From IMG/VR virus record IMGVR_UViG_3300025674_000031: DNA of 64,000 nt; one strand, given 5' to 3'. The notes beneath the pieces are model-generated. The model had not been told where the DNA came from, made no database searches, and saw only the letters and a program-made list of their open reading frames with translations. Shown one piece after another: positions 1-22,143 of this stretch. The translations under genes were made by a program, and so were the position numbers. How positions within the stretch are numbered: position 1 is the first letter of the stretch; each line of letters starts with the position of its first letter. This stretch comes from a virus.

Positions 1-1
1 C

Positions 2-1102
2 CTCCTTAACGAGGTAAAACTAGAAGACGTAAAGCAACGTTTCCAGTCAAAAAAGTTTAAAAAAGCATTTAGCGATAAATCAGAATCAGTAAGCAAGAAA
101 CTTCTCGATCAAGTCCCCAACGACATAGAAGAAAAGTACAAAGGCGCCTTGTTAAATTGGCTTATCAGTTGGGCAATTAAAAACAGAAACGTCAATATCC
201 CCGGCAACTTTAAAGCTTCCGCCGAAATATTCTTTCAGATCAAAGAACAAAACCTCCAGCGCCTTCTATCAAAAAAGTCCATAGCGCAAATAAGCTCACC
301 CGAAGAATTGATTTCTGTTGTTGCGCAAGCCAAGCCAGAATACGACAAGCACATAGCAGATAAAATAGAAAACTCCCGCAAAGGTGAAGGTCAAAACTTA
401 ATCTACCAAACCGATAAGTGGGAAGTTTACGTCCCCGAAACAAAAGGTGCATCCTGTGCCCTCGGCAAAGGCACCGAATGGTGTACAGCAGCGCCGGGAT
501 TAGATTACTACGAAGACACCCACAGCAAAGAACATCCGTTAATTATCTTTATCAACAAGCAAAACCCCGACGAAAAGTACCAATTCCATTATAAGACAAA
601 TCAGTTCATGGATAAAAACGACAAAAAGGTTAAGCCTAAGTTAATTTTTTTCAAGCTTAACGAAATCGTAAAGTCGCTCTCAGATAAACTACCCAAAGAA
701 ACCATCAAAAGCGCCAATCGATATAAAATTGAAAAACTTCCAAATGGCGAGTATGCACAAACAATTGAAAAAGCAAACGGAGACAAGTACTGGTACCAAA
801 ACGGCAAACTTCACCGTGAAAATGGTCCAGCAGTTGAAAAAGCAAACGGCGACAAACACTGGTTCCTAAACGCTAATCGCCACCGTGAAGACGGCCCAGC
901 AATTGAATATGCAGACGGTGAAAAGCAATGGTGGCTAAATAACAAACAGCACCGTGAAGATGGTCCAGCAGTTATAAGAGCAAACGGCAATAAGTCTTGG
1001 TGGTTAAATGACAAAAGACTTTCTTATTCCGAATGGAAAAAGGAAGTTCGCAATCAAAACAAGATTGCGTCTCTTTTTAATTATTTCAAGAAAAAAGTAT
1101 AA
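2..1102 (+). CDS. 5'-truncated protein with a GTxWCT (PcfJ-like) domain and C-terminal HREDGPA (MORN/YwqK-like) repeats; paralog of 6094..7461
   Basis: The frame is open from base 2 (LLNEVKLEDVKQRFQSKKFKK...IEEKYKGALLNW), so the true start lies upstream of the window. It aligns with the 6094 N-terminus and has 3 HRE(D/N)GPA units. Confidence 0.85.
   Translation, partial: LLNEVKLEDVKQRFQSKKFKKAFSDKSESVSKKLLDQVPNDIEEKYKGALLNWLISWAIKNRNVNIPGNFKASAEIFFQIKEQNLQRLLSKKSIAQISSPEELISVVAQAKPEYDKHIADKIENSRKGEGQNLIYQTDKWEVYVPETKGASCALGKGTEWCTAAPGLDYYEDTHSKEHPLIIFINKQNPDEKYQFHYKTNQFMDKNDKKVKPKLIFFKLNEIVKSLSDKLPKETIKSANRYKIEKLPNGEYAQTIEKANGDKYWYQNGKLHRENGPAVEKANGDKHWFLNANRHREDGPAIEYADGEKQWWLNNKQHREDGPAVIRANGNKSWWLNDKRLSYSEWKKEVRNQNKIASLFNYFKKKV
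767..1020 (+). repeat. 69-bp (23-aa) coding tandem repeat, about 3.5 units
   Basis: EKANGDKxWxxNGKxHREDGPA[VI] units, with CACCGTGAA invariant in each full unit. Confidence 0.9.
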
Positions 1103-1128
1103 ATCTAATGGCGTGCAGTAACACAACC

Positions 1129-1151
1129 ACTATTTATAAGCTATTTATAGC
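1129..1151 (+). promoter_or_regulatory. Tandem cTATTTATa motif, putative late promoter
   Basis: ACTATTTATAAGCTATTTATAGC upstream of the 1191 start; the same motif precedes many other genes. Confidence 0.5.
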
Positions 1152-1190
1152 ATACCGCCCCGAATGAACGGCGTAAGGAAAGCAACAATA

Positions 1191-1979
1191 ATGAGTGACA
1201 TTAAACTAATCTTAGAAAATTTTAGGAAAAAGCTAAATGAGGCCGATGATTTCGCCAGCGAAGATGGTTCATACCCCGGTGACGGTATAATTCCTCTATT
1301 TTCACCCGAAGAGCTTGAAGAGCTAGTTGACTTGGATATGCCAATGACCGAGGCTGAGAAAAAGTCAAAAGAATTGGTAGTTGCCGAGCGAGAAATGAAA
1401 GCAGGACTCGTAATCGCCGCCATAGCAATGGCCGCAGGCTTTCTTGATGTCACGCTGGTCATGTTAGGTGACAGATTCCCAGAATTTCGTCGAAAGATGA
1501 ACGACTATATTCAAGCAATAGCGCAAGAGTCTGTCAATCGCATGGCTGACGCCGAAGCTGATTTAGTGGCAAGGCAAGATGCCGATTATAAAGCAGCCCA
1601 AAAAGAAAAGAGGGAAGCAGCTAAAGAAAAGGCTCGTGAGATTAAGGCTAAAATCAAAAAAGTTGTCGAAGCCGATAAAGAACTCAACAGACTTCGTGAA
1701 GAAGCAGAACGCCTAACCTACCTTGTGCAAACCTCCCACCGTCAAAGAAAAGACAAGGGCCCCGGCATTAAAGGACTCCGCACCCCCGAAGCCACAGAGA
1801 TTCGTAAAAAGCAAAAAGAGGTTTTTGCACAATTCAAGGATCGAATCGAAATTGTTGTCGTGGAGGCTCTTAAAGCAGCAGAGGTTGAAGACCGACGGTA
1901 TAAATCTAGAACAAACTACGCAACCGACGACGGCGGCCCCGGCGATTACGCCACTAACTTAGCTCGTAAAGGAAAGTAA
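1191..1979 (+). CDS. Hypothetical protein with an LxE leader, one hydrophobic helix and a coiled coil
   Basis: The ORF track starts at 1164; ATG 1191 is preferred (AAGGA upstream, MSDIKLILENFRKKLNE leader). Confidence 0.7.
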   Translation: MSDIKLILENFRKKLNEADDFASEDGSYPGDGIIPLFSPEELEELVDLDMPMTEAEKKSKELVVAEREMKAGLVIAAIAMAAGFLDVTLVMLGDRFPEFRRKMNDYIQAIAQESVNRMADAEADLVARQDADYKAAQKEKREAAKEKAREIKAKIKKVVEADKELNRLREEAERLTYLVQTSHRQRKDKGPGIKGLRTPEATEIRKKQKEVFAQFKDRIEIVVVEALKAAEVEDRRYKSRTNYATDDGGPGDYATNLARKGK

Positions 1980-2004
1980 GCTTCGGCATTCTCTGACAAC
2001 CCCA

Positions 2005-2041
2005 TTACCCCCTTTAAGGCTAATAACTTTAAAGGGGGTAA
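2005..2041. terminator. Perfect 13-bp inverted repeat, possible terminator hairpin
   Basis: TTACCCCCTTTAA (2005-2017) and TTAAAGGGGGTAA (2029-2041) with an 11-nt loop, 26 nt after the 1979 stop. Confidence 0.6.
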
Positions 2042-2084
2042 GCTTTCCAGCGTACAGGACATCAAAGAGTTAGAACAGAATCTA

Positions 2085-2282
2085 AGCATTGGATTATTGA
2101 TTGGAAAATGGTCTTATGCTGGGTTAGAATCTGCTTGGGGATCAAGATTGCTTGGCTTTGGATTGTCTTATGTCAGTTTTCCAATTCTTACTTGGTTGTT
2201 GCTTGGCGAATCCGCTTTTACACCTAAGAACATGATAAGTCCTTTTTTAGCTTTTACTTTAGTGGCAATTCAAATTTTTTGA
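2085..2282 (+). pseudogene. 5'-truncated paralog of the small membrane protein 8302..8643
   Basis: SAWGSRLLGFGLSYVSFPILTWLLLGES...IQIF aligns to SAWSARLMAFGLSYISFPFLTYVFLKES...IQIFW. About 45 N-terminal aa are missing, and the terminal W codon appears to have lost one G (TTTTGAAAACC vs TTCTGGAAAACC). Confidence 0.7.
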
Positions 2283-2313
2283 AAACCTTAATATGTTGCT
2301 AGTTTGTGCTTGT

Positions 2314-2342
2314 TTGACTAAATTTTAGAACCGTGATATTCT
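2314..2342 (+). promoter_or_regulatory. Sigma70-type (early) promoter
   Basis: TTGACT-N17-TATTCT with an extended -10 TG. Confidence 0.7.
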
Positions 2343-2356
2343 GGTATCATGATTTG

Positions 2357-2390
2357 CTCAAATGGAGTTCTAAAATATGAAAAAAATTAT
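2357..2390 (+). repeat. 34-bp leader cassette, copy 1 (RBS plus first codons)
   Basis: CTCAAATGGAGTTCTAAAATATGAAAAAAATTAT, identical to 3653..3686. Confidence 0.95.
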
Positions 2391-2916
2391 TATAGTGTTT
2401 TTAATGTTGTTAATTTGTTTAGGCTCTTTCATTTGTTTTGCAAATAACGACAGCACAACGATTCGAAAAATTGAAAATAAGATCAAACAATATAAAATTC
2501 GAACAAAAAGTAAAATAATTTTTATTGACTATTCTGCTCCAATTTATAGTAAAAGGCTGTATGTTTATGACATAAAAAATAAAAAAATTATTAAAAAAAC
2601 ATATGTTGGACATGCTTTGTTAAGTGGTCTAAGAAAGCCAACTGATATATCGAACAAAATCGGATCGTGGAAAACAATCGATGGCCTATTCAAAACTGGA
2701 ACGAAATATATAGGCGGTTCAGGTAAATCCATGAATGTTCATGGGTTACTTAAGAAAAATAAAAACACCTTTAAAAGAAGAATTGTTTTTCATGGACCAA
2801 GTTATTTTGGTGCTATATGGAGTCAGGGTTGTTTCGTTGTTTTTCCAAAAGAGGACTTAAATTATATAATCGATAATTTTAAGAATGGTACACTTTTAAT
2901 AGTCAGCGTCGAATAG
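2377..2916 (+). CDS. Secreted murein L,D-transpeptidase catalytic-domain protein (YkuD_2-like)
   Basis: Signal peptide; IDYS..KRLYVYD, VGH..SG, SN..GS, RRIVFHG, SQGCF (His/Cys catalytic motif). Confidence 0.8.
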   Translation: MKKIIIVFLMLLICLGSFICFANNDSTTIRKIENKIKQYKIRTKSKIIFIDYSAPIYSKRLYVYDIKNKKIIKKTYVGHALLSGLRKPTDISNKIGSWKTIDGLFKTGTKYIGGSGKSMNVHGLLKKNKNTFKRRIVFHGPSYFGAIWSQGCFVVFPKEDLNYIIDNFKNGTLLIVSVE

Positions 2917-3606
2917 GAATGGGTATTGAACTTTTAAATATATCTCACTTCTCCTTCCTATTCTATTCATAGTCCACCATTTAGCAAAATCTGGCATGTC
3001 TGTGCCTAAATCTAAACAGCCAGAACTACCCTCTAATTCCCCGCCGTGTATAAAAAAACCACCACGATGACGAACCATTTCTGGGTAAAGTTTTGGTAAG
3101 CCCCTACCATAAATTGGTATTCGATGTTCGCCCCATGCAATTTTGCTTCCTATGGTTTTAGCTTGAAATGCATGATGCTGTTTCTTTCCGCCAAACATCG
3201 CCCCAATTTCACGCCCTACATATTTTAATTTATCAAACATGCCCGGTTCAACATATTTTTTTGCCGTTTGTAGGCCGCCGACTCTATACATTCCTTCCGG
3301 AATTCCACCAAAGTCTTTTACACCCTGCAAAGCTTTCCTCATAAAGTTTGGAGTATTTATTATTAAATCTAGCTTGCCGGTTGTTGCAGCCCATCTTCTT
3401 ACAACTTGCCCATCTGCCACTGCTTTTAAATGATCGCCATTGAATACAAGAAGAAGTTTTTTTGCTTTTAAAGCTTTTTCATCTCTAGTCGGGTCTCCTT
3501 GAAAAAAATGCAGTATTGAGTCTATGGTGCCCGTTATTTCTTTAAGTAATTCTTTTTCAAATTCTTCTTTAATAATTTGTTTTAATTTTTGACGTGTTAC
3601 CCTCAC
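2896..3606 (-). CDS. DUF2778/Tlde1-like L,D-transpeptidase-fold protein with an LxE leader
   Basis: GGIPEGMYRV, AWGEHRI, RGGFFIHGGELEGSSGC; GTG start with an AGGAG RBS; leader MRVTRQKLKQIIKEE..LLKE. Confidence 0.75.
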   Translation of the reverse strand: MRVTRQKLKQIIKEEFEKELLKEITGTIDSILHFFQGDPTRDEKALKAKKLLLVFNGDHLKAVADGQVVRRWAATTGKLDLIINTPNFMRKALQGVKDFGGIPEGMYRVGGLQTAKKYVEPGMFDKLKYVGREIGAMFGGKKQHHAFQAKTIGSKIAWGEHRIPIYGRGLPKLYPEMVRHRGGFFIHGGELEGSSGCLDLGTDMPDFAKWWTMNRIGRRSEIYLKVQYPFLFDADY

Positions 3607-3635
3607 TTGACTTTGCTCCTAATATATCGTACAAT
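3607..3635 (+). promoter_or_regulatory. Sigma70-type (early) promoter
   Basis: TTGACT-N17-TACAAT. Confidence 0.75.
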
Positions 3636-3643
3636 AATTAGTG
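3634..3643 (-). promoter_or_regulatory. cACTAATTAT late-type motif for 2896..3606
   Basis: The reverse complement reads CACTAATTAT, followed by AGGAG and the GTG start. Confidence 0.45.
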
Positions 3644-3652
3644 TAATATCTA

Positions 3653-3686
3653 CTCAAATGGAGTTCTAAAATATGAAAAAAATTAT
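3653..3686 (+). repeat. 34-bp leader cassette, copy 2
   Basis: Identical to 2357..2390. Confidence 0.95.
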
Positions 3687-4404
3687 GATTATCACAGGGG
3701 CGGCTTTTATTAGTGTCGCTTGTTTTGTGACTTTGTGGCTGGGTGTCGTACCAATTCGATATACACCACTCCCGCATGTAGATCTTGAAACAACACCACA
3801 TTCTACATGGATTGATCCATTCGAACAAATTCGTATTACGTCAATGCGATTTGATAAAAAGACATGTAAAGAGGTTTTGAAAAAACCGTATATTGATGCA
3901 GTACCACTAAAATCAAATCTGAAAAGCAATGGGTGCGGCTGGGTTAATGGTTTTAAAGTAAGAAGAGTTGCTGGCGCCAAGCTCGGTCGATCCGGTGCGG
4001 TCTTAAGTTGTCAAATGGCAACGAGTTTAGCTATGTGGATGCAGCATGTTCAGAAAAGAGCCGAAAAAATCTACGGGGTGCCAATTATTAAGATTCACCA
4101 CTATGGCACCTACAATTGTCGAAAAATTCGTAATAGTTGGATGCCAAGCCAACACTCATATGCCAATGGTATTGATATTAGTGGCTTTACACTACAGAAT
4201 GGCAGAAAGATTAGAGTGTACGGAAACTGGCACAAAGACAGTAAAGAATCTAATCTGATTAGATACGCCTACTCACAGTCCTGTACTTATTTCAATGTTA
4301 AGCTTGGTCCAAACAACGATAAAAGTCATCAGGATCACTTTCATCTTGATAATGGTCCTGCAATTTCATGGTGTAAAGCTCACGATAAAAGTTATTTTAA
4401 ATAA
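3673..4404 (+). CDS. Extensin-like family protein (Extensin-like_C), secreted or membrane-anchored
   Basis: N-terminal hydrophobic segment; CGW, LSCQMA, GTYNCRKI, SQHSYANGIDISGF, LGP..D..HQDHFHLD. Confidence 0.8.
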   Translation: MKKIMIITGAAFISVACFVTLWLGVVPIRYTPLPHVDLETTPHSTWIDPFEQIRITSMRFDKKTCKEVLKKPYIDAVPLKSNLKSNGCGWVNGFKVRRVAGAKLGRSGAVLSCQMATSLAMWMQHVQKRAEKIYGVPIIKIHHYGTYNCRKIRNSWMPSQHSYANGIDISGFTLQNGRKIRVYGNWHKDSKESNLIRYAYSQSCTYFNVKLGPNNDKSHQDHFHLDNGPAISWCKAHDKSYFK

Positions 4405-5954
4405 GTTAGCTTAGCGCCGGGCTTTTTTGGTATTTTTAAACGTATGGGGAACCCTTTATAAGTACTGTATGCCTCAGTTTCCCAAGGATATTTATCTGAT
4501 GGCCTAAGTGCGTGCCGGATTGGCAAGAAACATCGGGCAAAATTATATAGCCTCCCTTTGCCTTTCCTGTGCGCACACTTGGCACCGAGCTTGGTTTGTT
4601 TCCCTACAATTTGATCTTTTGAACCTTCTAAGGCTTCATAAATTTTTTTGTAATACTCTTGAAAACCAGCATTATTATCTGCTAATTCCGTCCAATCATT
4701 AAAATCAAAAAAGTCTTCGATAAGCCAATAATTTCCCTTATTTATAACTCTAAATTGACCCATCAGAAGTTTTAACATGCCGACAGTCGTCTTAGGATTT
4801 ACTTTTACTTCACCACCTTTTAGTGGATTTATTTTTCTGAATGCAGCGTAAAGCTCGTTATTACACTCTTTACCCCTGCAACCAAACGCTCTATTACCAA
4901 ATGAATAACTCCCGTTCGGTTTGCGAACATTTTCTGCTTGTGCTTTAAAAAACCTTCCATACCTACCAGCCTTTCTCATTATCCGCCTGTACTCGGGATT
5001 TTGGGGGTTAGTCATATTGTCCATAAATTTTGAAATTTGATCTATTTCACTCTGCTCCAAATCTTTTTCGGTAAAGGGGGTTGTACTGCCGGCAGCAAAT
5101 TTAAAAGCAGCACGATAATGTGGTGGACCATACTTAATAAATTTCAAAAATCTAGGCACAGTTTCAATAGCATCCCATACAGAAAACGGAATTGCTCCAT
5201 ATGCATCTCTAATATGATCTTTTACGTCTTGTGACATCGTCGTCGCATCATCTAATTGTGTTGTGATATCTTTTTTTGCTGCCTTACCAGCTAAAATCGC
5301 TAATGCCTGATTTTTTAGCTTATGAACACCCATAACACCCCTGATTGTAGCTTGCAGACCATCACCAGTTATACTCATATATTTTTGCGACACTGCTGCC
5401 AAAATACCATTTTTATCCGCAAACTTTAAGAGTGTAACAACATTTTTCATTTCGCCTTCATCAACATAGCCACTTAAATCACTTTGAAGCCTTGCAGCTA
5501 TACCATTCGTCAACGCAACTTTTCTATTTTGAGGCTCTTTAGCTTTTGGAGCAGACTTTGGTTGTTCTTCTGAACTGCCGCTAGCTTGCTGCAACAGGGC
5601 CATAGTCATTGGGCCTGCAATACCATCAATATTGCTACGTCCTCTTTCATTTCTAGGTGGCATTTTTTTTGCTTTAACTTGCGTTCTTTGAAAATCCTTT
5701 ACGGCTTCTTGCGTTTTCCCACCATAGACGCCATCAGGTTGTTCGGCATAAAGAGGCGGCTTTAGATTCTTTAGCATGTTCTGAAGTTTGTGAATTGGAC
5801 CATTGGGGTCTTTATCTCGCATTCCTCGTCTTAGCACTTGCACTTTCTGCTCTGTTAAAACGTCTTCAAGTTGATCGGTGGCAACATCTATTTTTTCTTG
5901 ATCATTTTCATTCTCTCGGATATAAGCTCGCCATTTGTTTAGTAGTTTCTGCAT
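4392..5954 (-). CDS. Protein with an LxE leader, a peptidoglycan-binding domain and an unknown C-terminal region
   Basis: LRRG..KLQ..L..PDGVYGGKTQEAVKDFQ..IDGIAGPMT. Start ATG 5954 (MQKLLNKWRAYIRE) is preferred over 5972. Confidence 0.75.
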   Translation of the reverse strand: MQKLLNKWRAYIRENENDQEKIDVATDQLEDVLTEQKVQVLRRGMRDKDPNGPIHKLQNMLKNLKPPLYAEQPDGVYGGKTQEAVKDFQRTQVKAKKMPPRNERGRSNIDGIAGPMTMALLQQASGSSEEQPKSAPKAKEPQNRKVALTNGIAARLQSDLSGYVDEGEMKNVVTLLKFADKNGILAAVSQKYMSITGDGLQATIRGVMGVHKLKNQALAILAGKAAKKDITTQLDDATTMSQDVKDHIRDAYGAIPFSVWDAIETVPRFLKFIKYGPPHYRAAFKFAAGSTTPFTEKDLEQSEIDQISKFMDNMTNPQNPEYRRIMRKAGRYGRFFKAQAENVRKPNGSYSFGNRAFGCRGKECNNELYAAFRKINPLKGGEVKVNPKTTVGMLKLLMGQFRVINKGNYWLIEDFFDFNDWTELADNNAGFQEYYKKIYEALEGSKDQIVGKQTKLGAKCAHRKGKGRLYNFARCFLPIRHALRPSDKYPWETEAYSTYKGFPIRLKIPKKPGAKLTYLK

Positions 5955-5955
5955 G

Positions 5956-5965
5956 TAATAAATAG
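5956..5965 (-). promoter_or_regulatory. CTATTTATTA late-type motif
   Basis: The reverse complement reads CTATTTATTACATG, the same context as 46121 (GTATTTATTACATG). Confidence 0.5.
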
Positions 5966-5980
5966 AAAACAAAATCTGAA

Positions 5981-6025
5981 AAATACTATAATTGCAAAGG
6001 CGAACACCACCGTGAAGACGGCCCC
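5981..6025 (+). pseudogene. Orphan intergenic HREDGP repeat unit
   Basis: Reads KYYNCKGEHHREDGP with no start codon. The 18 bp CCACCGTGAAGACGGCCC is identical to 880..897 and to units in the 6094 gene. Confidence 0.75.
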
Positions 6026-6081
6026 CAGCCCTTCGGGCTATTACATTACTGATAAAAGGCTTTAATCTTGAAATGCTGTAA

Positions 6082-6091: not shown

Positions 6092-6093
6092 AC

Positions 6094-7461
6094 ATGATAA
6101 AGCTGATAATAGAAAGCAAGGCCCTTCTTAGTGAAGTAAAGCTAGAAGATGCGCTTCTGCGTCTTGATTCTAAAAAATTTAAAAAGGCTTATCCCGAAAT
6201 AACCCCTCTAAAGTCTTCAGCTACTAAAAAATATATTAATTCCGCTATTCCTAGCGATATAGAAGAAAAATACAAAGGCGTGCTTGCGAATTGGATGATA
6301 TCTTATTTGATTAAAAATAAGCCCAAGCTTACAGACCTTCATGATATATTTGATCCAGAATTCACCAATTCCGCAGAACTGTTCTTCCAGATCAAACAAC
6401 AAAACCTTCAGCGCTTCTTAGCAAAGAAGTCTCTGTCTCAAATCGATTCACCTGAAGAGCTGATTTTTACTGTTGCGGAAGCCAAGCCAGAATACGACAA
6501 GCATATAGCAGATAAAATTGAAAACTCCCGCAAAGGTGAAGGCCAAAACCTAATCTATGAGGATGATAAATGGAAAGTTTACATTCCCGAAACAAAAGGT
6601 GCTTCCTGCGCCCTTGGCAAAGGTACCGATTGGTGTACCGCAGCGCCCGGTCTGGATTATTACGAAGACTATCATAAGCCCGACGACCCCTTGATTATCT
6701 TCATTAGCAAAAAAGATCCCAGCGAAAAGTACCAATTCCATTATGGAAGAAAGCATTTTATGGACAAAGATGATGCTCCCATTAAAAAAGATAAGGTCTT
6801 TTACGAGCTTAATGAAATTGTAAAATCTTTAAAAGACGTAATGCCTGATCGGGTCAAACAGGGCGCCGCCCGCTTTGACTATAGAATTCTTGATAATGGC
6901 GGGTATTATATTAAGAATCCCGGTTATTACAAATACTACGACAAAAAGGGACAATTACACCGTGAAGATGGCCCAGCAGTTAAATGGGCAGGTTTCCTTA
7001 CAGAATGGCGTCGGCACGGCAAACGCCACCGTGAAGACGGCCCAGCAGTTAAATATGATAACGGCAACGAGGAATGGTACATAAACGGCAAACGCCACCG
7101 TGAAGACGGCCCAGCGATTGAATTTGCAAACGGCGACAAGGCATGGTATCAAAACGACAAACTTCACCGTGAAGACGGCCCAGCATTTGAAAGTGCAAAC
7201 GGTGACAAGAGCTGGTGGCTAAACGACAAACGTCACCGTGAAGATGGCCCAGCAATTGAAGAAGCCAACGGCACCAAGGAATGGTTCCTAAACGGCAAAC
7301 GCCACCGTGAAGACGGCCCAGCAATTGAATGGGCAAACGGCGACAAGTCTTGGTTCCTAAACGGCAAAGAGCTTTCTCATTCCGAATGGAAACAGGAAGT
7401 CACTAAACTCAAACCCAATGAAGCCAGAACTCTTAAAGAACACTTCCAAAGATACCTATAA
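6094..7461 (+). CDS. GTxWCT (PcfJ-like) domain protein with 6 HREDGPA repeats
   Basis: The core is nearly identical to ORF 2..1102 (AKPEYDKHIADKIENSRKGEGQNLIY...GASCALGKGTxWCTAAPGLDYYED). Confidence 0.85.
   Translation: MIKLIIESKALLSEVKLEDALLRLDSKKFKKAYPEITPLKSSATKKYINSAIPSDIEEKYKGVLANWMISYLIKNKPKLTDLHDIFDPEFTNSAELFFQIKQQNLQRFLAKKSLSQIDSPEELIFTVAEAKPEYDKHIADKIENSRKGEGQNLIYEDDKWKVYIPETKGASCALGKGTDWCTAAPGLDYYEDYHKPDDPLIIFISKKDPSEKYQFHYGRKHFMDKDDAPIKKDKVFYELNEIVKSLKDVMPDRVKQGAARFDYRILDNGGYYIKNPGYYKYYDKKGQLHREDGPAVKWAGFLTEWRRHGKRHREDGPAVKYDNGNEEWYINGKRHREDGPAIEFANGDKAWYQNDKLHREDGPAFESANGDKSWWLNDKRHREDGPAIEEANGTKEWFLNGKRHREDGPAIEWANGDKSWFLNGKELSHSEWKQEVTKLKPNEARTLKEHFQRYL
6940..7371 (+). repeat. 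69-bp coding tandem repeat, 6 HREDGPA units
   Basis: Repeated CACCGTGAAGA(C/T)GGCCCAGC. Confidence 0.9.
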
Positions 7462-9180: not shown

Positions 9181-9214
9181 AATATGGACTATTTACCTTA
9201 GACGGAGAACCGAC

Positions 9215-9772
9215 ATGAAGATAAAATTGGGAAAGCTTAAGCGGCTGATCAAAGAAGAGGTTGAAAAAATCATAAATGAGTCTGCCAAGATTAATACTAG
9301 CGTATTGGAAAAATCTCTAACTAGAGATAGGCTTGGTAAATACAGAAAGTGTCAGCAGCCCGGATTTATTGGCTTAAAGAGAAATTGTATGGGAGAGACT
9401 GTCGCAAAACTTCAGGGAGCCATCAATCAATATTTCCTTGAAAAAGAACGAGTCTCTGATATGATTTCGGTAGATGGAATTTATGGAGAGTTAACTGCTG
9501 GAGCGTTAGGGTACATTGTTGCCATGACTAGTGAAGACGGCAACACTCCAAGGCTAGTGAACTCGGTCACCCCTGTTGTAGATAGAGAGTTGGCCAATAT
9601 CGAACAATCTGGGCAGGCCATAACCGCAGTAGCTAATGCTATCAACAGTATATCCAGAATGACTGCTTCCCCGAAAAAATCATCGGCAGAGGAACGAGCA
9701 GTTGACGCCGGCAAGCATCAGTTAGGTGTGGACATATCAAGACCTGAGGACTACATGCCTGCGTCTGACTAA
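9215..9772 (+). CDS. Protein with an LxE leader and a peptidoglycan-binding-like domain
   Basis: True start ATG 9215 (GGAGA RBS, ACTATTTACC motif at 9188); MKIKLGKLKRLIKEE..IINE; LKR..GETVAKLQ..VDGIYGELT. Confidence 0.65.
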   Translation: MKIKLGKLKRLIKEEVEKIINESAKINTSVLEKSLTRDRLGKYRKCQQPGFIGLKRNCMGETVAKLQGAINQYFLEKERVSDMISVDGIYGELTAGALGYIVAMTSEDGNTPRLVNSVTPVVDRELANIEQSGQAITAVANAINSISRMTASPKKSSAEERAVDAGKHQLGVDISRPEDYMPASD

Positions 9773-9773
9773 T

Positions 9774-10661
9774 ATGAATCCAATCGCACAATTAAAAAAA
9801 GTAATAGAGGAGTCTTTAGAGACAACTATACCTAGCAAACCCTCCTCTAAAAAGCTATTCTTGAACAATGAGGATAGAGTTTCATCTATAAACAACAATT
9901 TAAGGGTCATGCTCGACACCTTTCAAAAAAGCTACGCATTTAGAAGCATAATAGCGTCCTCTTGGAGCGAAGATCATGATGTTTTTAACGAGAAAGAGTT
10001 GTCTGCTGGCGATGGAGAAAAATTTATTAATTGGCTCGTAAGATACAACTCTATTTTTCAAAAAGTTAATCTAGAAAGGTTCCTTGGCGCAGGCTCGTTT
10101 GGAGCTGTTTGGCTCCTAGACAATGACCACGTCCTAAAGGTATTTTCAGGTTCGCTTGACAATGAGGCCCATGACCATACAGCCGCCAAAGATCGAACAA
10201 GGTATGACATGGAAGCCGATAAGCTGTTCTCAGGACTTGGCTCTAACACCAATCTAATGGTATATGATCATGGTAGATTGAAAACCATGAACGGTAAAAC
10301 AATGTATTGGGTCGAGATGCAAAAAGTCGATATGTTGATAGACGTTGTTGCTGTTGCAAACAATAAAACTAGCGATAGAGACAAGTTCTATCTGGAAGAT
10401 GAACTACAGGAAATAATTGTAACTATTAAGTCAAAAATACGGCATAGTTCTGAGTCGGATGAACATAAACTAGTTCTGTCCATTAAAGACTGGATAAAGA
10501 GGTTGTATACCATTGTTCCAGATAGACTGCTCTTAAGTTTGATTAGCGAAATGGTAAAAGTGGCAAAAAACGAGGGCGTTTCTGAGCTGGCCGATGTCAG
10601 GACAGTGAACATAGGCGTAAGCCCTAGTGATCCTAATTCAGTTGTGCTGTTTGATAGATAA
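9774..10661 (+). CDS. Protein kinase-like fold protein
   Basis: LGAGSFGAVW Gly-loop, VLK lysine, ADVRTVN catalytic-loop-like segment and VLFD (DFG-like); start ATG 9774 after the 9772 stop. Confidence 0.7.
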   Translation: MNPIAQLKKVIEESLETTIPSKPSSKKLFLNNEDRVSSINNNLRVMLDTFQKSYAFRSIIASSWSEDHDVFNEKELSAGDGEKFINWLVRYNSIFQKVNLERFLGAGSFGAVWLLDNDHVLKVFSGSLDNEAHDHTAAKDRTRYDMEADKLFSGLGSNTNLMVYDHGRLKTMNGKTMYWVEMQKVDMLIDVVAVANNKTSDRDKFYLEDELQEIIVTIKSKIRHSSESDEHKLVLSIKDWIKRLYTIVPDRLLLSLISEMVKVAKNEGVSELADVRTVNIGVSPSDPNSVVLFDR

Positions 10662-14564: not shown

Positions 14565-14567
14565 TAT

Positions 14568-16955
14568 ATGAGCGACACTCCTTGGTATAAAAGAACCTAC
14601 GAAAGAGATACAAAAAATCGTAATGCCCTATTAGGCAAAAGAAAAGCCTCTAATAAGGGCTGGGAAGCGTACCCTGCTCGGCGGCCAGTAGATGAGCTTA
14701 GTGCTCCACCGATTACGGAAGGTGTCGCCGCCGATGTAGGCCATGTTCTTTTAGATGGTCTGGGGGTGATAGGCGATTTCTTCTACGGCTCTGGAGCAAT
14801 ATTCGACGCTGCTAATATGGTCTGGTACGCCAAAGAAGCACTTGAATATTATTCTGAGTTTGAAAAAACAGGTTACAGTGCCGTCAGTTTGCTAGCGAAA
14901 GCTGAACTGGGGTCGGTAGATCCAAGGGAAGCAGGTAAACTGAAACATGCGAGCGGTCTGTTAAGTAAAGCCCTAACCGCAGCCCTGTATAGTGCTCTTT
15001 CTGGTATTTCGATATTCCCCGGAGTCGGTGATCTGGCCGGTAAAAGTATAAAGTATACATTTAAGTCTCTTGATTTAATGCCTAAATTTATTTCTAGAGG
15101 CGCTGCAATGCTGGGCAAGCACCCGGAGAAACTAAACAAAGTCCTAACTGCTGCCGTTGATAAACGCATGATGACCACTGAGGAGGCGATTAAATTTATT
15201 GATATTATAGATGGGGCCAAAGTTGTAGCAAAAGAAGAGCTAAAAAACCCTCACATAGTAAGAAGAATGTTCGATATGGCCTCGGGGAGCTTTAAATTCG
15301 CAAGAGGCACACACAAATTCGCATCCGGCGCAGCCAAAGCAAGCGGAGAATTTGTTAGCAAGGCTACCCTTGGATCTGCCGCTAAAAGAACTTTAGGAGT
15401 TGTAGGAGAAATTGGTAAGTATAAGAAACTAACATCTCAGGCAGGGGAACTAGTAGACCCTGAAAAAAACGATACTCTCAAAGACACTCTCTCCAAGACT
15501 ATTGATCCTACTAATAAAGAAAGCGAAGTGTCAAAGCTTGTTAATAAGTTTGCAGGTGAAGGTATAGATGTTGCCAGCCTAACAAAGATGATATCATCTG
15601 ACAATGCTATTTCAACTATTGGGCAAGTGCTTTTAGCAATTTTTGCAATTAGTGGTGTATTAATAGGGAAACTTTTCTCAAGTGCATTTAACTTAATTCC
15701 CGATGCACCGACTATTTTGAAAAAATACAATAGCCCTTCTATTTATCCGGGCGGCGTTGCCATTCTCGCTGGTGACAGCCAAATGGCCGGTGGAATTGGT
15801 AAAGTTCTTGAGTCGGAACTGAGTTCTCGTGGTACCACAGTAATTGGAGGTCCGGGTAGCTCTTTGGCCCGTCCCGGTCGAAGCATCGGGCAGATGACTA
15901 ACGACAGCAGCTTCTTTGAAACACTGGAAAAAACCCAAGAACAAGTCGGGAACACCGACCGACAACTCAATGAAGCAGTAAAAGCGTCTCAGCGACTAAG
16001 CGTTGTCTTGAACTTGGGAGGCAATGGCCCAACATCAGGAGCGGCCAGCTTGGTTCAAAAAATCCACAAGATCTCTCCAAAGGCTCTTATTATTTTTTTA
16101 GGACCACCACCGCCAGTAGTAAGCAAATCAGGCTCTAAGAAATATTTAAAATTATTCAAAGAAAGGGAAGAGAAGAACAGAAGACTTGAAAGCCAGCTAA
16201 GTGTATTTCCTTATGTTAAATTTGTAGATCCTTACGACTATGTTCTCCCCTACTATAAAAAGGGCGGCGACGGCCTGCATATGCCGGAACCTATAGCCAA
16301 GAAATATATTTCAGACGTTTTGTCTAATATGCCACCAAGAATGTCCGACCCTGCGTCGATGCAAAGGCTCTTGTCCAAGCAGGATAAAGGATTTTCTCAA
16401 AGTACAAGTTCAGATTTAAAATTAAATGCTAATTTAAGCGGGGAACAGCTTGTAAACTTAAGAATTATATACAATTCCCTAACAAGTTACGGGTTCTCTG
16501 ACTTGATTGCTAAAGCCGCAATTGTTAATGCTTACGCCGAGTCTAGATTAAGATCAGAAGCGGTAGGAGATTCAGGTAATTCAATTGGCTTGTTCCAAGT
16601 CCATAGAAATGGCGCAGGGACACTGGTAAGCAAAAACAACCCAAAACTTGCTAACGAGTTCAATAAAACAAGAGAACTTTACAAAAGAATAAGGCCCGGC
16701 AAGTTTAATAAATCTTTTGCAGATAGTCGTCTTGCCTCGGGCGATATTCGATTCAGCCCTGAGCAAAATACAGCTATTATAGCTAAAGAGCTACAAGGCG
16801 GATTCGGCAGAAGGTTCCAGAACGAGCTTCAAGGAGTAGACGACATCCCCACCGCAGCCGCCCTATTTTCTAAGTATATTGAGCGACCAAAGGATAAAGA
16901 ACTTGCCATGAAGAAGAGGTACCAGCTAGCTAAAAAAATGTTTTCGGCAGCTTAG
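14568..16955 (+). CDS. Multidomain protein: PT-TG-like helical region, SGNH/GDSL hydrolase and phage tail lysozyme-like domain
   Basis: LDGLGVIGD..DAAN..IFPGVGD; LAGDSQM..LGGN..DGLH; AIVNAYAES..GDSGNSIGLFQ..YIERP; ACTATTTAAT motif at 14556. Confidence 0.7.
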   Translation: MSDTPWYKRTYERDTKNRNALLGKRKASNKGWEAYPARRPVDELSAPPITEGVAADVGHVLLDGLGVIGDFFYGSGAIFDAANMVWYAKEALEYYSEFEKTGYSAVSLLAKAELGSVDPREAGKLKHASGLLSKALTAALYSALSGISIFPGVGDLAGKSIKYTFKSLDLMPKFISRGAAMLGKHPEKLNKVLTAAVDKRMMTTEEAIKFIDIIDGAKVVAKEELKNPHIVRRMFDMASGSFKFARGTHKFASGAAKASGEFVSKATLGSAAKRTLGVVGEIGKYKKLTSQAGELVDPEKNDTLKDTLSKTIDPTNKESEVSKLVNKFAGEGIDVASLTKMISSDNAISTIGQVLLAIFAISGVLIGKLFSSAFNLIPDAPTILKKYNSPSIYPGGVAILAGDSQMAGGIGKVLESELSSRGTTVIGGPGSSLARPGRSIGQMTNDSSFFETLEKTQEQVGNTDRQLNEAVKASQRLSVVLNLGGNGPTSGAASLVQKIHKISPKALIIFLGPPPPVVSKSGSKKYLKLFKEREEKNRRLESQLSVFPYVKFVDPYDYVLPYYKKGGDGLHMPEPIAKKYISDVLSNMPPRMSDPASMQRLLSKQDKGFSQSTSSDLKLNANLSGEQLVNLRIIYNSLTSYGFSDLIAKAAIVNAYAESRLRSEAVGDSGNSIGLFQVHRNGAGTLVSKNNPKLANEFNKTRELYKRIRPGKFNKSFADSRLASGDIRFSPEQNTAIIAKELQGGFGRRFQNELQGVDDIPTAAALFSKYIERPKDKELAMKKRYQLAKKMFSAA

Positions 16956-16967
16956 CCACTATTTATC

Positions 16968-18485
16968 ATGATGTATGAAATAGTAAATCCAGATAATCTA
17001 TTCTATTCAAAAAATAGCAAACTAGTTAATGATTTTATGGATTTTTCTAGTAAAAATCTAAGGTTTGAAAAGCCGGTTACAATTGATTTTATAGAGGATA
17101 ATAGCGCAGGACAAGATCCGCTTGGCAAGACTGCACACTATAACCCTCAAGAAATGTCCATTGTTGTCTATACCACAAATAGGCACCCAAAGGATATATT
17201 GAGATCACTTTCGCACGAACTTGTACATCATTGCCAAAATTGCAATGGCGAAATTCCTTTGGATTCTAGCACAGAAAAAGGCTATGCCCAAACTGATGAA
17301 ACGATGCGGAGCTTAGAAAACGAAGCATACCAAAAAGGAAATATTGAAAATATCCGAAAATTTATGAATTTCCGTGACTTCGAGGACCAATACAAAATGA
17401 AGGAAAACAAAAAACAAGTGAACGAAGTGGGCGCCGCCCCTAACATAAATCAATCTTTTGCAGCCGACAAGCAGCGCCGGAAAGACCAAGGCCCGGACTT
17501 GCTACCTGCAGAAAAAAAAGAACTGGAAAGAAGAATAATAGACAGACAAGATGTAGCAAAAAGAATAGGAGTTGAACCAGACAAAGTTGCGTATGTAGAC
17601 CTGAAACTTCTTAATACTATCGCACAACTAAAAAAATTATCTGATTCAAGTCCTCTAAGTATGGAAGCTCCAACAGTTAAATCTGTTAGGAGGGAAATTG
17701 CAGCACTCGACGACCGCAAGGCGTTCGCTGCCCTTTATAAAGCTACTCCCTTTCTATGGCGGGGCCGTGTTCGACGCCTTCGGGCCAGCGGCGGCAAGAA
17801 GTCCCGGCTATCGAAGAAACAACGAGAAGGTAAACATATAATATCGCTCCAGAAAGCAATTGAAGACTACCATAAAGAAACTAAAGACCCCGGCATGAAA
17901 ATTAAAGTTACCGGTAAGTATAATAGAGAAACACAAAGAGCAATAAATAAATTGCGGCGCAAGCATTCAGGTTTTCCAAAAAGAAATCGTGATTTTGAAA
18001 AGAGTGTATCTGCTATTACACTTTGGTTACAAACTTGGTTAGAAGTTAGAGAAGATGAAAAGGCTGAGGCTGGCAAGAAGGCTGAGGCTGGCAAGAATGT
18101 CAAGTCCGCTCCTGCTAAGGGGGCGGCGCCAAGCTCTGGCAGTACAAATACAGCCCTTGCCAAATCTGCCGATCTTAGTAAAGAGTATGACCAGTTAATA
18201 GCCGATCGGAGAAGAATTGACCGTATGCCACCGGGACCACTTAAAAGAGAGGCTGAAAGGCAGCACAAAGCGCAATTAGCAGACTTTAAAAGGAGAAGAG
18301 CCGCCGCATCCGGCTTCGGGGTTAATGAGAACGTTGATCCAGCATTTGACCAAGCCGAGGTTTCCAAAAAGAGTAAAAAGCGACCTTTGCGTGAAAATCA
18401 AAAAGCAGATCGTAATGAGATGCTTTCAAGAATCCTAACTGAAAGATTGCTCGGAAATGTTAAAATTAAAATTAAAAATAACTAA
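16968..18485 (+). CDS. Multidomain protein with an N-terminal HExxH zincin-like domain and a possible PG-binding-like segment
   Basis: RHPKDILRSLSHELVHH..ENEAY; ISLQKAI..VTGKYNRETQRAI; ACTATTTATC directly before the ATG. Confidence 0.65.
   Translation: MMYEIVNPDNLFYSKNSKLVNDFMDFSSKNLRFEKPVTIDFIEDNSAGQDPLGKTAHYNPQEMSIVVYTTNRHPKDILRSLSHELVHHCQNCNGEIPLDSSTEKGYAQTDETMRSLENEAYQKGNIENIRKFMNFRDFEDQYKMKENKKQVNEVGAAPNINQSFAADKQRRKDQGPDLLPAEKKELERRIIDRQDVAKRIGVEPDKVAYVDLKLLNTIAQLKKLSDSSPLSMEAPTVKSVRREIAALDDRKAFAALYKATPFLWRGRVRRLRASGGKKSRLSKKQREGKHIISLQKAIEDYHKETKDPGMKIKVTGKYNRETQRAINKLRRKHSGFPKRNRDFEKSVSAITLWLQTWLEVREDEKAEAGKKAEAGKNVKSAPAKGAAPSSGSTNTALAKSADLSKEYDQLIADRRRIDRMPPGPLKREAERQHKAQLADFKRRRAAASGFGVNENVDPAFDQAEVSKKSKKRPLRENQKADRNEMLSRILTERLLGNVKIKIKNN
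18060..18095 (+). repeat. Exact 18-bp tandem duplication (KAEAGK x2)
   Basis: AAGGCTGAGGCTGGCAAG twice. Confidence 0.9.
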
Positions 18486-21400
18486 ATCTTTGTCCGAATC
18501 CGAAGAAGCTGCTAGTGATGCCGCTGACCCTGCCGAACAGGATATCCATTATAATTACAAGAAGCTCGAAGAAATTTCCTCTATGGCAGGCGGGAGCGTA
18601 GCAGGAGGTATATCTGGCTGGGCCGATGATGATTTCGGAAATAATAAGCGCTCTTTAAAAGAGGGCGGCAACATCTTCAAGACGCCAGAAAAAGAACCTG
18701 CAACAAAGCGCATTAAAAGAGAAAATGTAGATGGAACCTTGCAATGGCTAGAGGATTTAACTGGTCTGCCACTAGTAAACAATAAACTAGGCACAACTGG
18801 GAAAAGAGAAACCTCAGGGGACTTAGATATAGCAGTTAGTTATGACTCCTCGAACAAAGATGATCTAACTGCTATTTTATTAAAGTGGTTAATAGAGAAT
18901 AAGCCCGAGCTTGGATTATCAGAATTGCCATCAGCAAAGGGAAAAAGGCTGAAAGAGTTAAAAAAGACTCTACGAGGATGGATCGCCCATTCAGGAAATT
19001 CTGTACATTTTAAAACTCCAATCCTAGGCGACGAATCTAACGGCTTTGTCCAAACTGATTTTATGTTTGGAGATGTTGATTTTATGAAATGGTCAACGCA
19101 GCCTGAGTACGGAGATAAGTATAACGGCCATCATAGGCACGTCCTTTTAAATGCAATAGCCAAAACAAAAGGATACGCTTGGGGCGGTTTTACTGGTTTA
19201 AAGCGCAGAGAGACAAAAGAACAGATTAGTGATCCTGATCAGATAGTTAAAATACTTTTCGATGGAAAACTTAGCAAAGACCAAATGACCTCTATTGACA
19301 ATCTCATCAAATATATAAATGATGAACAAAACGTCAGCGAAGAAGATTATGAAGTAATTCATCAAATGGTCAATAATGTAGTCGATTTGCCTCATCGCAA
19401 CAGTACAGAAAACGATCTTGTCACAGAGGGCACCCTACCAAAAGGAAGAATCCACCATCCTGAGGATCTAATGCTTTGGCAAGGTTCCGAGGGGGCTTTG
19501 ACAGCTTTAGATTTAATCGAAAAAGCATTGAAAGAGAAAAACAGCACAACTCTAAAATGGGACGGCTCCCCTGCTGTTATATTTGGACGTGATGAATCCG
19601 GCGAATTTATATTCGCTGACAAAAATGCGTTTGTAGTCAAATCCTATGACGGTAAAGTGAAAAGCCCCGAGCAGATGCAAGACGTTCTCTTGAACAAGCG
19701 TCATAGAGATAAGGGAAAGGAGCCCTCGGAGTCATACATTCAATTTGCGAATAAAATGACAGAAGCTTTTTCTCTAGTTGAAAAGAACTTTCCAGAGAAC
19801 TTTCAGGGATATTATTTCGGAGACTTACTTTATTTTAATAGACCCGAACTACTAGATGGCCATTATAAGTTTAAGCCGAATGTAGTCGAATACACGGTTA
19901 AGGCTGATTCAGATCTTGGCCGAGACATATCAAAGTCAGAGCTAGCAATTGCTGTTCATGGCATGATTGAACTGGGCGGAGAAAAAAAACCTTTAACGGA
20001 CTTTTCAAACACCTTATTGGGCGATGTACTGTTGTTGAGCCCAGTTCATTCCGATACGGATATCAATTTCGATGTAAGAAAACTGTCTAAAGTCCAAGCA
20101 AAAATAAATTCTTGTAAGGATTCTTTAGATTTTATGGCTGGCGACTTTTCAGCGGCACGCCTATCCGATTTGCCAAATATATTCTACAGGTATATTAACT
20201 TTCAGACAGCTAATGATTTTAATAATTTGGCAAGTAATTTTTTACCTTGGATTGACTCACAGAGTAAATTTACAAATTCAAAAAAAGAATCAATTAAATC
20301 ACTCGTTGAAGATCATAAATCGAAGGTCAACGACCTCTTCGAATGTTACATGGCGTTAATGGAAGTGAAGAACGACATTGTTGCCTCGCTAGATACCAAG
20401 AATGACCAAATACGGGCATCGATTGGGGACATACCAATCGGTGAGGGCTACGTTATATCCTTGGGAGGGACTACAATAAAGTTGGTCGATAGAAGCAAGT
20501 TTACGAGGGCCAATAGATCAGTGATCCGAGAATCAAAAGAGCGTGAGCTATCCAGTATTCTTTTCATCCCCGGTGGATTTAAGCCACCGCACAAAGGGCA
20601 TATAGAGCTTATAAAACAAGCAATCAAAAAAGCCGGCCCGCTTGATCAAGTCTATATTGTATCTGGAAAGGACACAAGAGGGACTGTAACCGCTGAGCAA
20701 GCAGAAAAAGTTTTCGAGATAATGCTTGAAGAAGAAGGTCTATTGGGGTTGGTTGAGTTAGTATACTTTGATAAAGTCGCCACTGGTAAGACCTACAGCG
20801 ACACACCAGCAAACATAAAAAAAGGAATAGCTGGCCAGCCGATCCTATCCAACAGCCCAATGGTTAAAGTTGGTCTCATTGCCGCTGAAGTCGCAAAAGA
20901 TAATGCTGATATTTTAGTTGCAGCATCGAAAGCAGACCCAAAACATACTAAAGTTGCTGATAGAGTTATTAATTACCATGCTAGCGAGGTAGACAAGAGA
21001 TTTAATGTAGAGGCTGTAGTAGTAGACCCATTAGCCGCATCTGAAGATGCTAAAGTAAGTGCTACAGATATGAGAGCGGCAATCCAGTCTGGAAACTATG
21101 AGGAATTCACTAAATTTGTTCCAGACTCTGTCGATCCTGAAAACGTTCAAAAGATCTTCAGCATACTTACAGGAAAGGAGCCTAATTATAACATGAAAAG
21201 CAAGAACGAAATAGTCGAAAAATACAAAAGAGGCAAGCTTTTAGAAGAAAGGGTTCTCAGAAAATACATTAGAGGTAAAATTCTAGAATCAAAGCTCCTG
21301 AAAGAGTTGGCCGATAACGAACTGACTTCAAGTACTGGTACCAATATCGCTGCCAAAACACTTGAAAAATTTATTAAAGGTCTTCCAACCCAGTACAAAA

Positions 21401-22143
21401 CTTTAGCTTCGTCAAAAGAGCAAAGACTTTCTTATGCCGCTCACTATATTCAGGCTATTAAAAATAGCATGATTTCTGTTCTTGCTAAGAAAGGCCTAGA
21501 TCTATCGACTACTGATGAACCTGTTGGCCTCGCCGTGGGAGGCGAGCCCTCAGGAGAAAAATTTACAGTTTCAAAGGCCCCAGATCAAACTGAAGAACCG
21601 CCACCTGCTGAAGATGAGCTAATGTCTGAGCAAGAAGATGACGAGCTTGGCGATCTTAATCTAGATCTGGACGCAGATGAACAGGAAGGGGAGATTGACC
21701 CAGAAGGTGAAGTAATGCCTGTCACTCCAGACGAAAAAGCCAAAGTTAAGAAAGAAAAGGCAGCACAGAAAGTACTTGATCCAGAACAAGAAGAAATGAT
21801 GCCTCAGATTTCTGGTTTGGACGATACAGGTCGTGAATTGGCGTCAGAAGACGTTAAAGTGGCAATCGCTGCCGTAAAAGACGGCGTTAACATGCTTACT
21901 GATGCGACTGATGTTAAGGATTTCATTTCCACCCTCATTACTCAAATTAAGATCCGCTTTAATCTTGCTGAGAGGGAAATAACCGGCACAGATGCAACAA
22001 ATATCAATAGCACTCCAATTTCATCAGCAGAAAAGTTTATGAATCAACTTGAGGAGTCGAAAAGCCCAAACAGCTCTTTAAGTATCGACGACTTTTTGAT
22101 AAAATCATTGAAAGAGATGATGAAAAATGTCAGCAAAAGATGA
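18457..22143 (+). CDS. Polyprotein-like: Pol-beta-type NTase, KxDG ligase-like domain, HIGH-family nucleotidyltransferase and acidic tail
   Basis: GTTGKRETSGDLDIAV..VQTDFM; RIHHPED..TLKWDGSPA; IPGGFKPPHKGH..KVSATDMR. Confidence 0.75.
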   Translation: MLKLKLKITKSLSESEEAASDAADPAEQDIHYNYKKLEEISSMAGGSVAGGISGWADDDFGNNKRSLKEGGNIFKTPEKEPATKRIKRENVDGTLQWLEDLTGLPLVNNKLGTTGKRETSGDLDIAVSYDSSNKDDLTAILLKWLIENKPELGLSELPSAKGKRLKELKKTLRGWIAHSGNSVHFKTPILGDESNGFVQTDFMFGDVDFMKWSTQPEYGDKYNGHHRHVLLNAIAKTKGYAWGGFTGLKRRETKEQISDPDQIVKILFDGKLSKDQMTSIDNLIKYINDEQNVSEEDYEVIHQMVNNVVDLPHRNSTENDLVTEGTLPKGRIHHPEDLMLWQGSEGALTALDLIEKALKEKNSTTLKWDGSPAVIFGRDESGEFIFADKNAFVVKSYDGKVKSPEQMQDVLLNKRHRDKGKEPSESYIQFANKMTEAFSLVEKNFPENFQGYYFGDLLYFNRPELLDGHYKFKPNVVEYTVKADSDLGRDISKSELAIAVHGMIELGGEKKPLTDFSNTLLGDVLLLSPVHSDTDINFDVRKLSKVQAKINSCKDSLDFMAGDFSAARLSDLPNIFYRYINFQTANDFNNLASNFLPWIDSQSKFTNSKKESIKSLVEDHKSKVNDLFECYMALMEVKNDIVASLDTKNDQIRASIGDIPIGEGYVISLGGTTIKLVDRSKFTRANRSVIRESKERELSSILFIPGGFKPPHKGHIELIKQAIKKAGPLDQVYIVSGKDTRGTVTAEQAEKVFEIMLEEEGLLGLVELVYFDKVATGKTYSDTPANIKKGIAGQPILSNSPMVKVGLIAAEVAKDNADILVAASKADPKHTKVADRVINYHASEVDKRFNVEAVVVDPLAASEDAKVSATDMRAAIQSGNYEEFTKFVPDSVDPENVQKIFSILTGKEPNYNMKSKNEIVEKYKRGKLLEERVLRKYIRGKILESKLLKELADNELTSSTGTNIAAKTLEKFIKGLPTQYKTLASSKEQRLSYAAHYIQAIKNSMISVLAKKGLDLSTTDEPVGLAVGGEPSGEKFTVSKAPDQTEEPPPAEDELMSEQEDDELGDLNLDLDADEQEGEIDPEGEVMPVTPDEKAKVKKEKAAQKVLDPEQEEMMPQISGLDDTGRELASEDVKVAIAAVKDGVNMLTDATDVKDFISTLITQIKIRFNLAEREITGTDATNINSTPISSAEKFMNQLEESKSPNSSLSIDDFLIKSLKEMMKNVSKR

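Follow-up and report, generated by a model that had tools for sequence, protein, structure and literature searches.

The window analysed here, a 64-kb stretch of the IMG/VR virus record IMGVR_UViG_3300025674_000031, comes from an uncultured, distantly T4-like myovirus, with baseplate wedge genes of the gp25 and gp6 types at 46132-48312. Two of its genes, 2896-3606 on the minus strand (hereafter 3606(-)) and 9215-9772 (hereafter 9215), begin with a leader of 22 to 23 residues that recurs on hundreds of mostly small, unrelated proteins in environmental viral contigs. As judged by sequence comparison, this leader is homologous across the proteins that carry it, is N-terminal, is selected at the level of the peptide and is specific to viral contigs. 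By analogy with phage T4, we put at about an even chance the reading that in 3606(-) and 9215 it is a head-targeting propeptide of a marine T4-like clade, resembling the capsid-targeting sequence (CTS) of the T4 internal proteins (IPs). The family appears to be previously unnamed: no published description of it was found, and a literature search with leader strings returned 0 papers.

A leader shared by unrelated proteins

An initial annotation of positions 1-22143 had quoted seven N termini as short leaders ending in [LIV]xE, those of genes 1191, 3606(-), 5954, 6094, 9215, 9774 and 18457. All seven are present in the sequence as quoted, with GTG as the start codon of 3606(-). When the 64 kb are translated in six frames, a narrower motif, L[KR][KRQ][LIV]I[KRE]E, is seen three times and no more: in 3606(-), 9215 and 9774, each match lying 5-8 residues from the gene start. 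The corresponding leaders are as follows.

3538 to 3606, minus strand: leader of gene 2896-3606(-), (V->M)RVTRQKLKQIIKEEFEKELLKE, 23 residues, with IKE at residues 12-14 and LKE at 21-23
9215 to 9280, plus strand: leader of gene 9215-9772, MKIKLGKLKRLIKEEVEKIINE, 22 residues, with IKE at residues 12-14 and INE at 20-22
9774 to 9821, plus strand: doubtful degenerate leader of gene 9774-10661, MNPIAQLKKVIEESLE, found by a match to a hand-made regular expression, with a kinase-like body behind it

Against a leader profile that was iterated on environmental N termini, and of which a stricter version was also used, 3606(-) gives an expectation value (E) of 2.5e-8 (3.6e-7 with the strict profile) and 9215 gives 2.2e-6, while the match of 9774 is not significant (E=4.2). 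A homologue of 3606(-) at 87% identity begins MKITSQKLKQIIKEELEKELLKE. In six homologues of 9215 (84-94% identity), residues I12, K13, E14 and E15 are invariant, as are I20, N21 and E22. The consensus of the leader is MKITKxQLKQIIKEELxxVLxE, and that of its environmental copies is MKITKSQLKQIIKEELEKVLNE.

When IMG/VR was scanned for LKQIIKEE with a degenerate DNA pattern, at least 161 sites were found in at least 120 contigs. Among the matches listed, 96% are N-terminal, with a start codon 4-9 codons upstream (nearly always an ATG at a distance of exactly 7 or 5 codons), and several copies, up to five of them in tandem, are present at 25 loci. For instance, the arrays at L024 and L106 (five copies each) and L060 (four) place the leader on unrelated bodies. 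The same pattern applied as a control to 596 Gb of prokaryote genomes gave single, mostly internal matches and about seven leader look-alikes, all of them on contigs of marine metagenome-assembled genomes, and reversed-pattern controls gave 0 matches. The eight core residues are written in 107 distinct 24-mers among the 158 sites listed, with synonymous codons freely used, which places the selection on the peptide.

A profile search of the leader loci from the matches listed, about 1 Mb in total, returned at least 236 leader open reading frames (ORFs) with a median length of 114 residues. Their bodies form 190 BLASTP clusters, 176 of which are singletons, and hardly any can be placed in a Pfam or PHROG family. 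The motif [LIVM]xE is present at residues 10-17 in 84% of these ORFs and at residues 18-27 in 60%, against 14% for control residues 41-50. A second [LIVM]xE stands at +12 or +13 in 59%, and right after this second site the information content is at baseline. A tblastn search of cultured phages with the 22-residue consensus gave one match at E=2, which is uninformative for such a short, low-complexity query. A blastn search against E. coli genomes returned no match.

Around 13 of the environmental leader genes (e.g., at L106, L030 and L041) have a conserved DNA stretch, TATGAATGGATTA, right ahead of the ATG. It reads ...YEWISN in frame, is 9-fold enriched relative to other genes and is possibly a promoter or ribosome-binding site (RBS) element of one sub-lineage. 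A second, unrelated leader of 10 residues, MIKLKDLLKE, begins about 100 diverse proteins (median 136 residues) at 98 IMG/VR loci (L267-L364), with stop codons a median of 6 codons upstream. The other N termini of the window were considered as members of this second family and rejected, as none matches its profile: the best is 6094 at E=4.3, followed by 18457 at E=49 and 1191 at E=50.

Cargo bodies and their surroundings

Behind the two leaders lie bodies that may both be directed at the cell wall.

2899 to 3459, minus strand: Tlde1-like L,D-transpeptidase-fold body of gene 2896-3606(-), residues ~50-236, with HGG...GSSGC, His187 and Cys197
9281 to 9769, plus strand: body of gene 9215, 163 residues, a candidate peptidoglycan-binding domain

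The body of 3606(-) exceeds the Pfam cut-off for YkuD with 24.5 bits, and among its 81 homologues Tlde1_dom is found in 68 and YkuD in 63. A single-sequence AlphaFold2 model was unusable (predicted local distance difference test score, pLDDT, of 32), and a model based on a multiple sequence alignment (pLDDT 85.9) was used instead. In this model, residues 5-36 form a leader helix and the domain begins at about residue 50. The top Foldseek match is Salmonella Tlde1a (7uma, E=1e-8); the columns G188, G189, S194, G196 and C197 are invariant, and His187 is kept together with Cys197. On alignment and predicted structure, the body has the Tlde1/YkuD L,D-transpeptidase fold with the catalytic His...Cys motif. 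A type VI secretion system (T6SS) context, meaning VgrG/PAAR neighbours and Tldi immunity, was not found around 3606(-); the gene sits in a phage accessory cassette beside YkuD_2 and Extensin-like_C neighbours that have signal peptides. Distant Tlde1-like homologues carry a similar leader. Among the Tlde1-like homologues (P0010-P0157), a signal-peptide-like N terminus was seen in only 4 of 148 and PG_binding_1 in 24 of 81. One homologue is fused to a core domain of extracellular contractile injection systems and another to the head-protein domain Phage_Mu_F.

The body of 9215 has no Pfam or PHROG match. In the ESM-Atlas it lies closest to clusters of viral hypothetical proteins and of PG_binding_1 (0.89-0.90), and it is possibly a peptidoglycan-binding domain, a suggestion that should be taken as a lead only. 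The protein-kinase-like character of the 9774 body is likewise an Atlas lead.

Gene 3606(-) belongs to the following cassette, identified by Pfam and PHROG matches.

2377 to 5954, mixed strands: four-gene cell-wall cassette comprising YkuD_2 with a signal peptide, the leader-bearing Tlde1-like gene, Extensin-like_C with a signal peptide and a 520-residue PG_binding_1/endolysin-like protein

By comparison with sister contigs, this cassette is an accessory insertion. It is missing from L262, L263 and L264, where a homologue of the 262-residue product of 1191-1979 is followed directly by a 386-residue paralogue of 6094-7461. Gene 9215 is kept in sister contigs (84-87% protein identity), and in L263 a leaderless 250-residue gene stands in place of 9774. 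Since the cassette with 3606(-) is missing and 9774 is replaced in sister contigs, leader genes are accessory and variable, like the IP genes of T-even phages.

Within the cassette, 2896-3606(-) is paired with the 179-residue signal-peptide YkuD_2 gene (2377-2916), the two being convergent and overlapping. On an unrelated contig (L265:1372-3260) the same pair is found in tandem, behind a 439-residue leader-PG_binding-Tlde1 protein. This conserved pairing could represent an effector/immunity-like pair or a two-step wall-editing pair. Genes 2377 and 3673 encode products with signal peptides, matching their initial description. They share an identical upstream stretch, ...CTCAAATGGAGTTCTAAAAT (2357-2379 and 3653-3675), after which both start MKKI, and are otherwise unrelated.

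The late-type upstream motif of the initial annotation, CTAWTTA, is real and has a strong strand bias (20 on the plus strand vs 3 on the minus strand). It is found upstream of 1191, 3606(-), 5954(-), 6094, 9215, 11689, 14568 and 16968, as well as of the large genes 53492 and 57992, which adjoin the baseplate block. The two copies ahead of the leader genes are placed as follows.

3635 to 3641, minus strand: CTAATTA upstream motif, 35 nucleotides ahead of the 3606(-) start
9189 to 9195, plus strand: CTATTTA upstream motif, 26 nucleotides ahead of the 9215 start

The occurrence of CTAWTTA ahead of both leader genes and of 53492 and 57992 is compatible with co-expression of the leader genes with late genes. 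Elsewhere in the window, positions 28000-38000 form an island of low guanine-cytosine content (0.28-0.32 vs ~0.40) with apparent sugar-nucleotide and glycosyltransferase-type genes, recognized from N-terminal sequences only, and this island looks like a separately acquired block.

Possible head loading and competing explanations

If the leader is a head-targeting propeptide, the following mechanism can be proposed. The amphipathic, helical leader of 22-23 residues, a portable N-terminal module of an uncultured clade of marine T4-like myoviruses, would dock its protein onto the prohead core as the T4 CTS does. Cleavage by a gp21-type protease would follow, behind the Glu of IKE (residues 12-14) and/or of LxE (residues 20-23), and the freed body would remain in the head and exit with the DNA. 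The window products, a Tlde1-like peptidoglycan-editing enzyme and a small candidate peptidoglycan-binding protein, would be cell-wall factors delivered by the virion. A fuller scenario, which we consider improbable, adds a role for the neighbouring gene: the leader would be the head-loading address of the clade, the Tlde1-fold editor would be loaded in the virion, and an early-secreted YkuD_2 would pre-modify the wall as an 'immunity' or superinfection-exclusion partner.

Phages with the leader encode a T4-type prohead protease. Peptidase_S77, the gp21-type protease, is encoded in 35 of 50 leader-bearing records and in all six of those at least 90% complete; by CheckV completeness, all 50 records are parts of genomes of about 150-190 kb. 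gp23 is present in all five complete carrier records tested. In carrier L108, the protease has its closest relatives in Flavobacterium phage immuto and Microcystis phage Mel-JY01, and the nearest kin of the window's gp6 wedge protein are the same two phages and a 484-kb uncultured phage (31-32% identity). Because the kin of the L108 protease are also the kin of the window's gp6, the leader can be regarded as a feature of one far-T4 marine clade that includes the window and has these two phages as its nearest cultured kin. Both immuto and Mel-JY01 encode S77. A megablast search of 1-22143 against 50,697 phage records gave no match and thus no close DNA relative there.

Canonical leader genes lie inside or adjoin the head module in G041, G029, G045 and G031, and in several genomes they are within this module or directly downstream of the protease. 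Among 148 sampled neighbours within 2.5 kb of leader genes, portal, S77 protease and terminase are the families seen most often, and no non-structural partner enzyme is recurrent. The N termini of the clade's scaffold proteins (MxxxLKEAIAEAK) and of T4 gp22 (MLKEQLIAEAQK) bear a loose resemblance to the leader core that is not significant. Just downstream of the S77 protease in L141 (G041), L139, L140 and L108 is a gene for a small conserved protein, MKKAELKKxLKPxxKECIKEVLFE(E/D)GVLSG. Its leader-like helix scores E=0.009 against the leader profile, and the protein is possibly a component of the core with a link to how the leader arose. Leader-bearing contigs also encode a homologue of ribosomal protein S21, and members of the tubulin/FtsZ family were found among 4 of the 148 sampled neighbours (loci L108:3676-4053(-) and L265:192-1037).

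Several points weigh against head loading. Peptidoglycan-directed cargo is odd, given that T4 delivers its internal proteins to the cytoplasm. There is no detectable sequence similarity between the leader and the T4 CTS (MKTYQEFIAE) or the T4 core proteins, with gp67, gp68, gp21 and gp22 scoring 1.5 bits or less. Half of the leader bodies are acidic, with an isoelectric point below 5.5, in contrast to the T4 IPs, which are basic. None of the eight genomes checked has the strict leader pattern, namely immuto, Mel-JY01, LR756508 (uncultured), Syn9, P-SSM2, HTVC008M, S-PM2 and S-CAM1. Environmental leader genes show no upstream enrichment of a T4-type late promoter, TATAAATA. Neither a prohead protease nor any head gene was found within the 64-kb window, and the link between S77 and the leader may reflect clade membership only. 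The enrichment of portal, protease and terminase among neighbours is biased by the way in which short viral contigs are recognized. Position relative to the head module was rejected as evidence for the same question and is uninformative, since a distance of 12-95 kb separates most strict leader genes from that module in complete genomes. Complex prediction for a leader protein with the G041 scaffold scored 0.00, a result that counts neither way.

Some of these observations also speak for an alternative in which the leader is a real shared module with a partner other than the capsid. In that case its helix would serve docking or oligomerisation, with a membrane, a host target, a chaperone or a modifying enzyme as the counterpart. 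The mostly acidic bodies (vs the basic T4 IPs) and the distance of most leader genes from head genes in complete genomes are in keeping with such a helix. [LI]xE arises easily from an amphipathic helix rich in K, E, I and L, and with two cargos in the window directed at the cell wall, a role in lysis or at the envelope would fit too. Nevertheless, we consider this explanation rather unlikely. The 148 sampled neighbours offer no recurrent partner enzyme, their top families being structural or S77 protease; the second [LIVM]xE stands at a fixed distance and marks the end of conservation, which a plain helix would not predict; and the leader is confined to phages with a gp21-type protease.

A purely compositional origin, in which [LIV]xE arises by chance in the K/E/I/L-rich N termini of an AT-rich phage and there is no shared leader, is very improbable as an account of the whole, though it explains much of what the initial annotation had gathered. 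That annotation had described leaders ending in [LIV]xE across the first 22 kb. Counted over residues 1-30 of each of the 22 genes there, the motif has 17 sites, in 11 genes, against 11.0 +/- 3.3 in random internal 30-residue windows of the same proteins (P=0.06) and 11.4 in shuffled N termini (P=0.04). This marginal excess disappears when 3606(-) and 9215 are left out (13 sites vs 10.4 expected, P=0.24). Over whole proteins, the rate is 1.63 per 100 residues inside the region vs 1.75 outside. Four of the quoted N termini, listed below, show no match to the leader profile.

1191 to 1979, plus strand: non-leader N terminus MSDIKLILENFRKKLNE, no match with either profile
4392 to 5954, minus strand: non-leader N terminus MQKLLNKWRAYIRE of a PG_binding_1 plus endolysin-like protein, no leader-profile match
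6094 to 7461, plus strand: non-leader N terminus MIKLIIESKALLSE, a member of neither leader family
18457 to 22143, plus strand: 1228-residue multidomain protein, DUF6267 plus cytidylyltransferase-like, whose N terminus is not a leader

In the case of 1191, the KLNE of the N terminus becomes KMAE in sister phages. The proposal of a T4-like capsid-addressing propeptide on unrelated proteins therefore fits 3606(-), 9215 and possibly 9774, and does not extend to 1191, 5954, 6094 and 18457.

The [LIV]xE sites that had been assigned to internal domain borders are not above background density. Protein 18457 has 28 sites in its 1228 residues, or one per 44, so that a site near any border is to be expected, and proteins 14568 (795 residues) and 16968 (505 residues) have five each, below background. 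Nothing links these three proteins to the capsid, and with inter-domain sites at chance density there is no evidence for the suggested cutting of proteins into single domains. The idea of a modular cargo library of about 20 kb is likewise not supported, because four of the seven 'leaders' belong to neither leader family, the generic motif is unenriched without two genes and the linkers are at chance density. In sequence terms, the compositional explanation stands for the other five N termini, that of 9774 included, and for the linkers: ordinary composition accounts for these 'leaders', for the inter-domain sites and for the supposed library. For 3606(-) and 9215 it is refuted by their profile matches, by the hundreds of environmental copies at ORF starts and by the empty reversed-pattern controls. 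The loose [LIV]xE rule thus over-calls, with five of seven examples and every 'linker' site at background, which is a useful negative result.

The last explanation, that the leader is a nucleic-acid device (a translation-initiation or mRNA cassette, or a recombination site, with genes swapped behind a common start), is hardly credible: tandem leader genes with unrelated bodies (L024, L106 and L060) do resemble cassette shuffling, and the window does contain an identical RBS-plus-start cassette on genes 2377 and 3673, but the many 24-mers with free synonymous codons, together with the little DNA identity among the three leader copies of the window, place the conservation at the protein level.

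Were head loading true, an injected (or core) proteome comprising hundreds of orphan families could be read from sequence. A head-loading tag would provide a sequence rule for predicting which orphan genes, in a clade represented in at least 120 IMG/VR contigs, enter the particle, and the proteins so predicted would be the first to reach the host or would help to shape the prohead core. Another consequence would be that virions can deliver cell-wall enzymes resembling T6SS effectors, and for the engineering of such phages the leader would offer a candidate packaging tag.

Comparison with known systems

The closest parallel to the leader is the CTS of T4. In T4, gp21 cleaves after L/I-x-E, and the propeptides of the internal proteins are 10-19 residues long and target the core (PMC9026906, PMC3012670). 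The IPs co-purify with gp22 (PMC9026906, PMC3012670), and those of T-even phages have been described as 'a highly diverse set ... with only a conserved CTS' (PMC3012670). A literature search that combined cyanophages with the CTS found no linking paper except one general T4 review. The marine leader resembles the CTS of IPI, IPII, IPIII and Alt, which is removed by gp21, in being a short N-terminal propeptide-like segment on unrelated, dispensable proteins that ends in [L/I]-x-E. Similarly, its carriers encode a gp21-type (S77) protease, gp23 and a gp22-like scaffold, and the gene repertoire behind the leader is highly variable. It differs in having 22-23 residues and two candidate cut sites, in a repertoire of hundreds of families where T4 has three or four, and in that half of the bodies are acidic.

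The hypervariable IP loci of T-even phages offer a second point of comparison. Both systems join a constant address to exchangeable bodies and show presence or absence at the strain level, as illustrated by the 3606(-) cassette that is missing in sister contigs. However, the marine leader genes are scattered as well as tandem, and the two bodies described here belong with cell-wall proteins, not with anti-restriction factors.

In the giant phages phiKZ and SPN3US, ejection proteins are reported to be trimmed by the prohead protease (PMC5694885, PMC7411985, PMC10052503). These phages are alike in having many head-packaged, protease-processed proteins that are delivered to the host, and differ in belonging to a separate lineage. 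We know of no common 22-residue leader on their ejection proteins.

Comparisons can also be made from the side of the cargo. The body of 3606(-) shares its fold and its His/Cys catalytic motif with the Salmonella T6SS effector Tlde1a (PDB 7uma) and with YkuD L,D-transpeptidases. Unlike Tlde1a, it is phage-encoded and carries a phage leader, and it has a signal-peptide YkuD_2 neighbour in place of a T6SS context or a Tldi-type immunity gene. Finally, MuF-domain head proteins are found fused to toxin domains. These fusions are alike in placing a cell-wall or toxin domain on a head-internal address, but the address in their case is a whole MuF domain and not a short cleavable helix.

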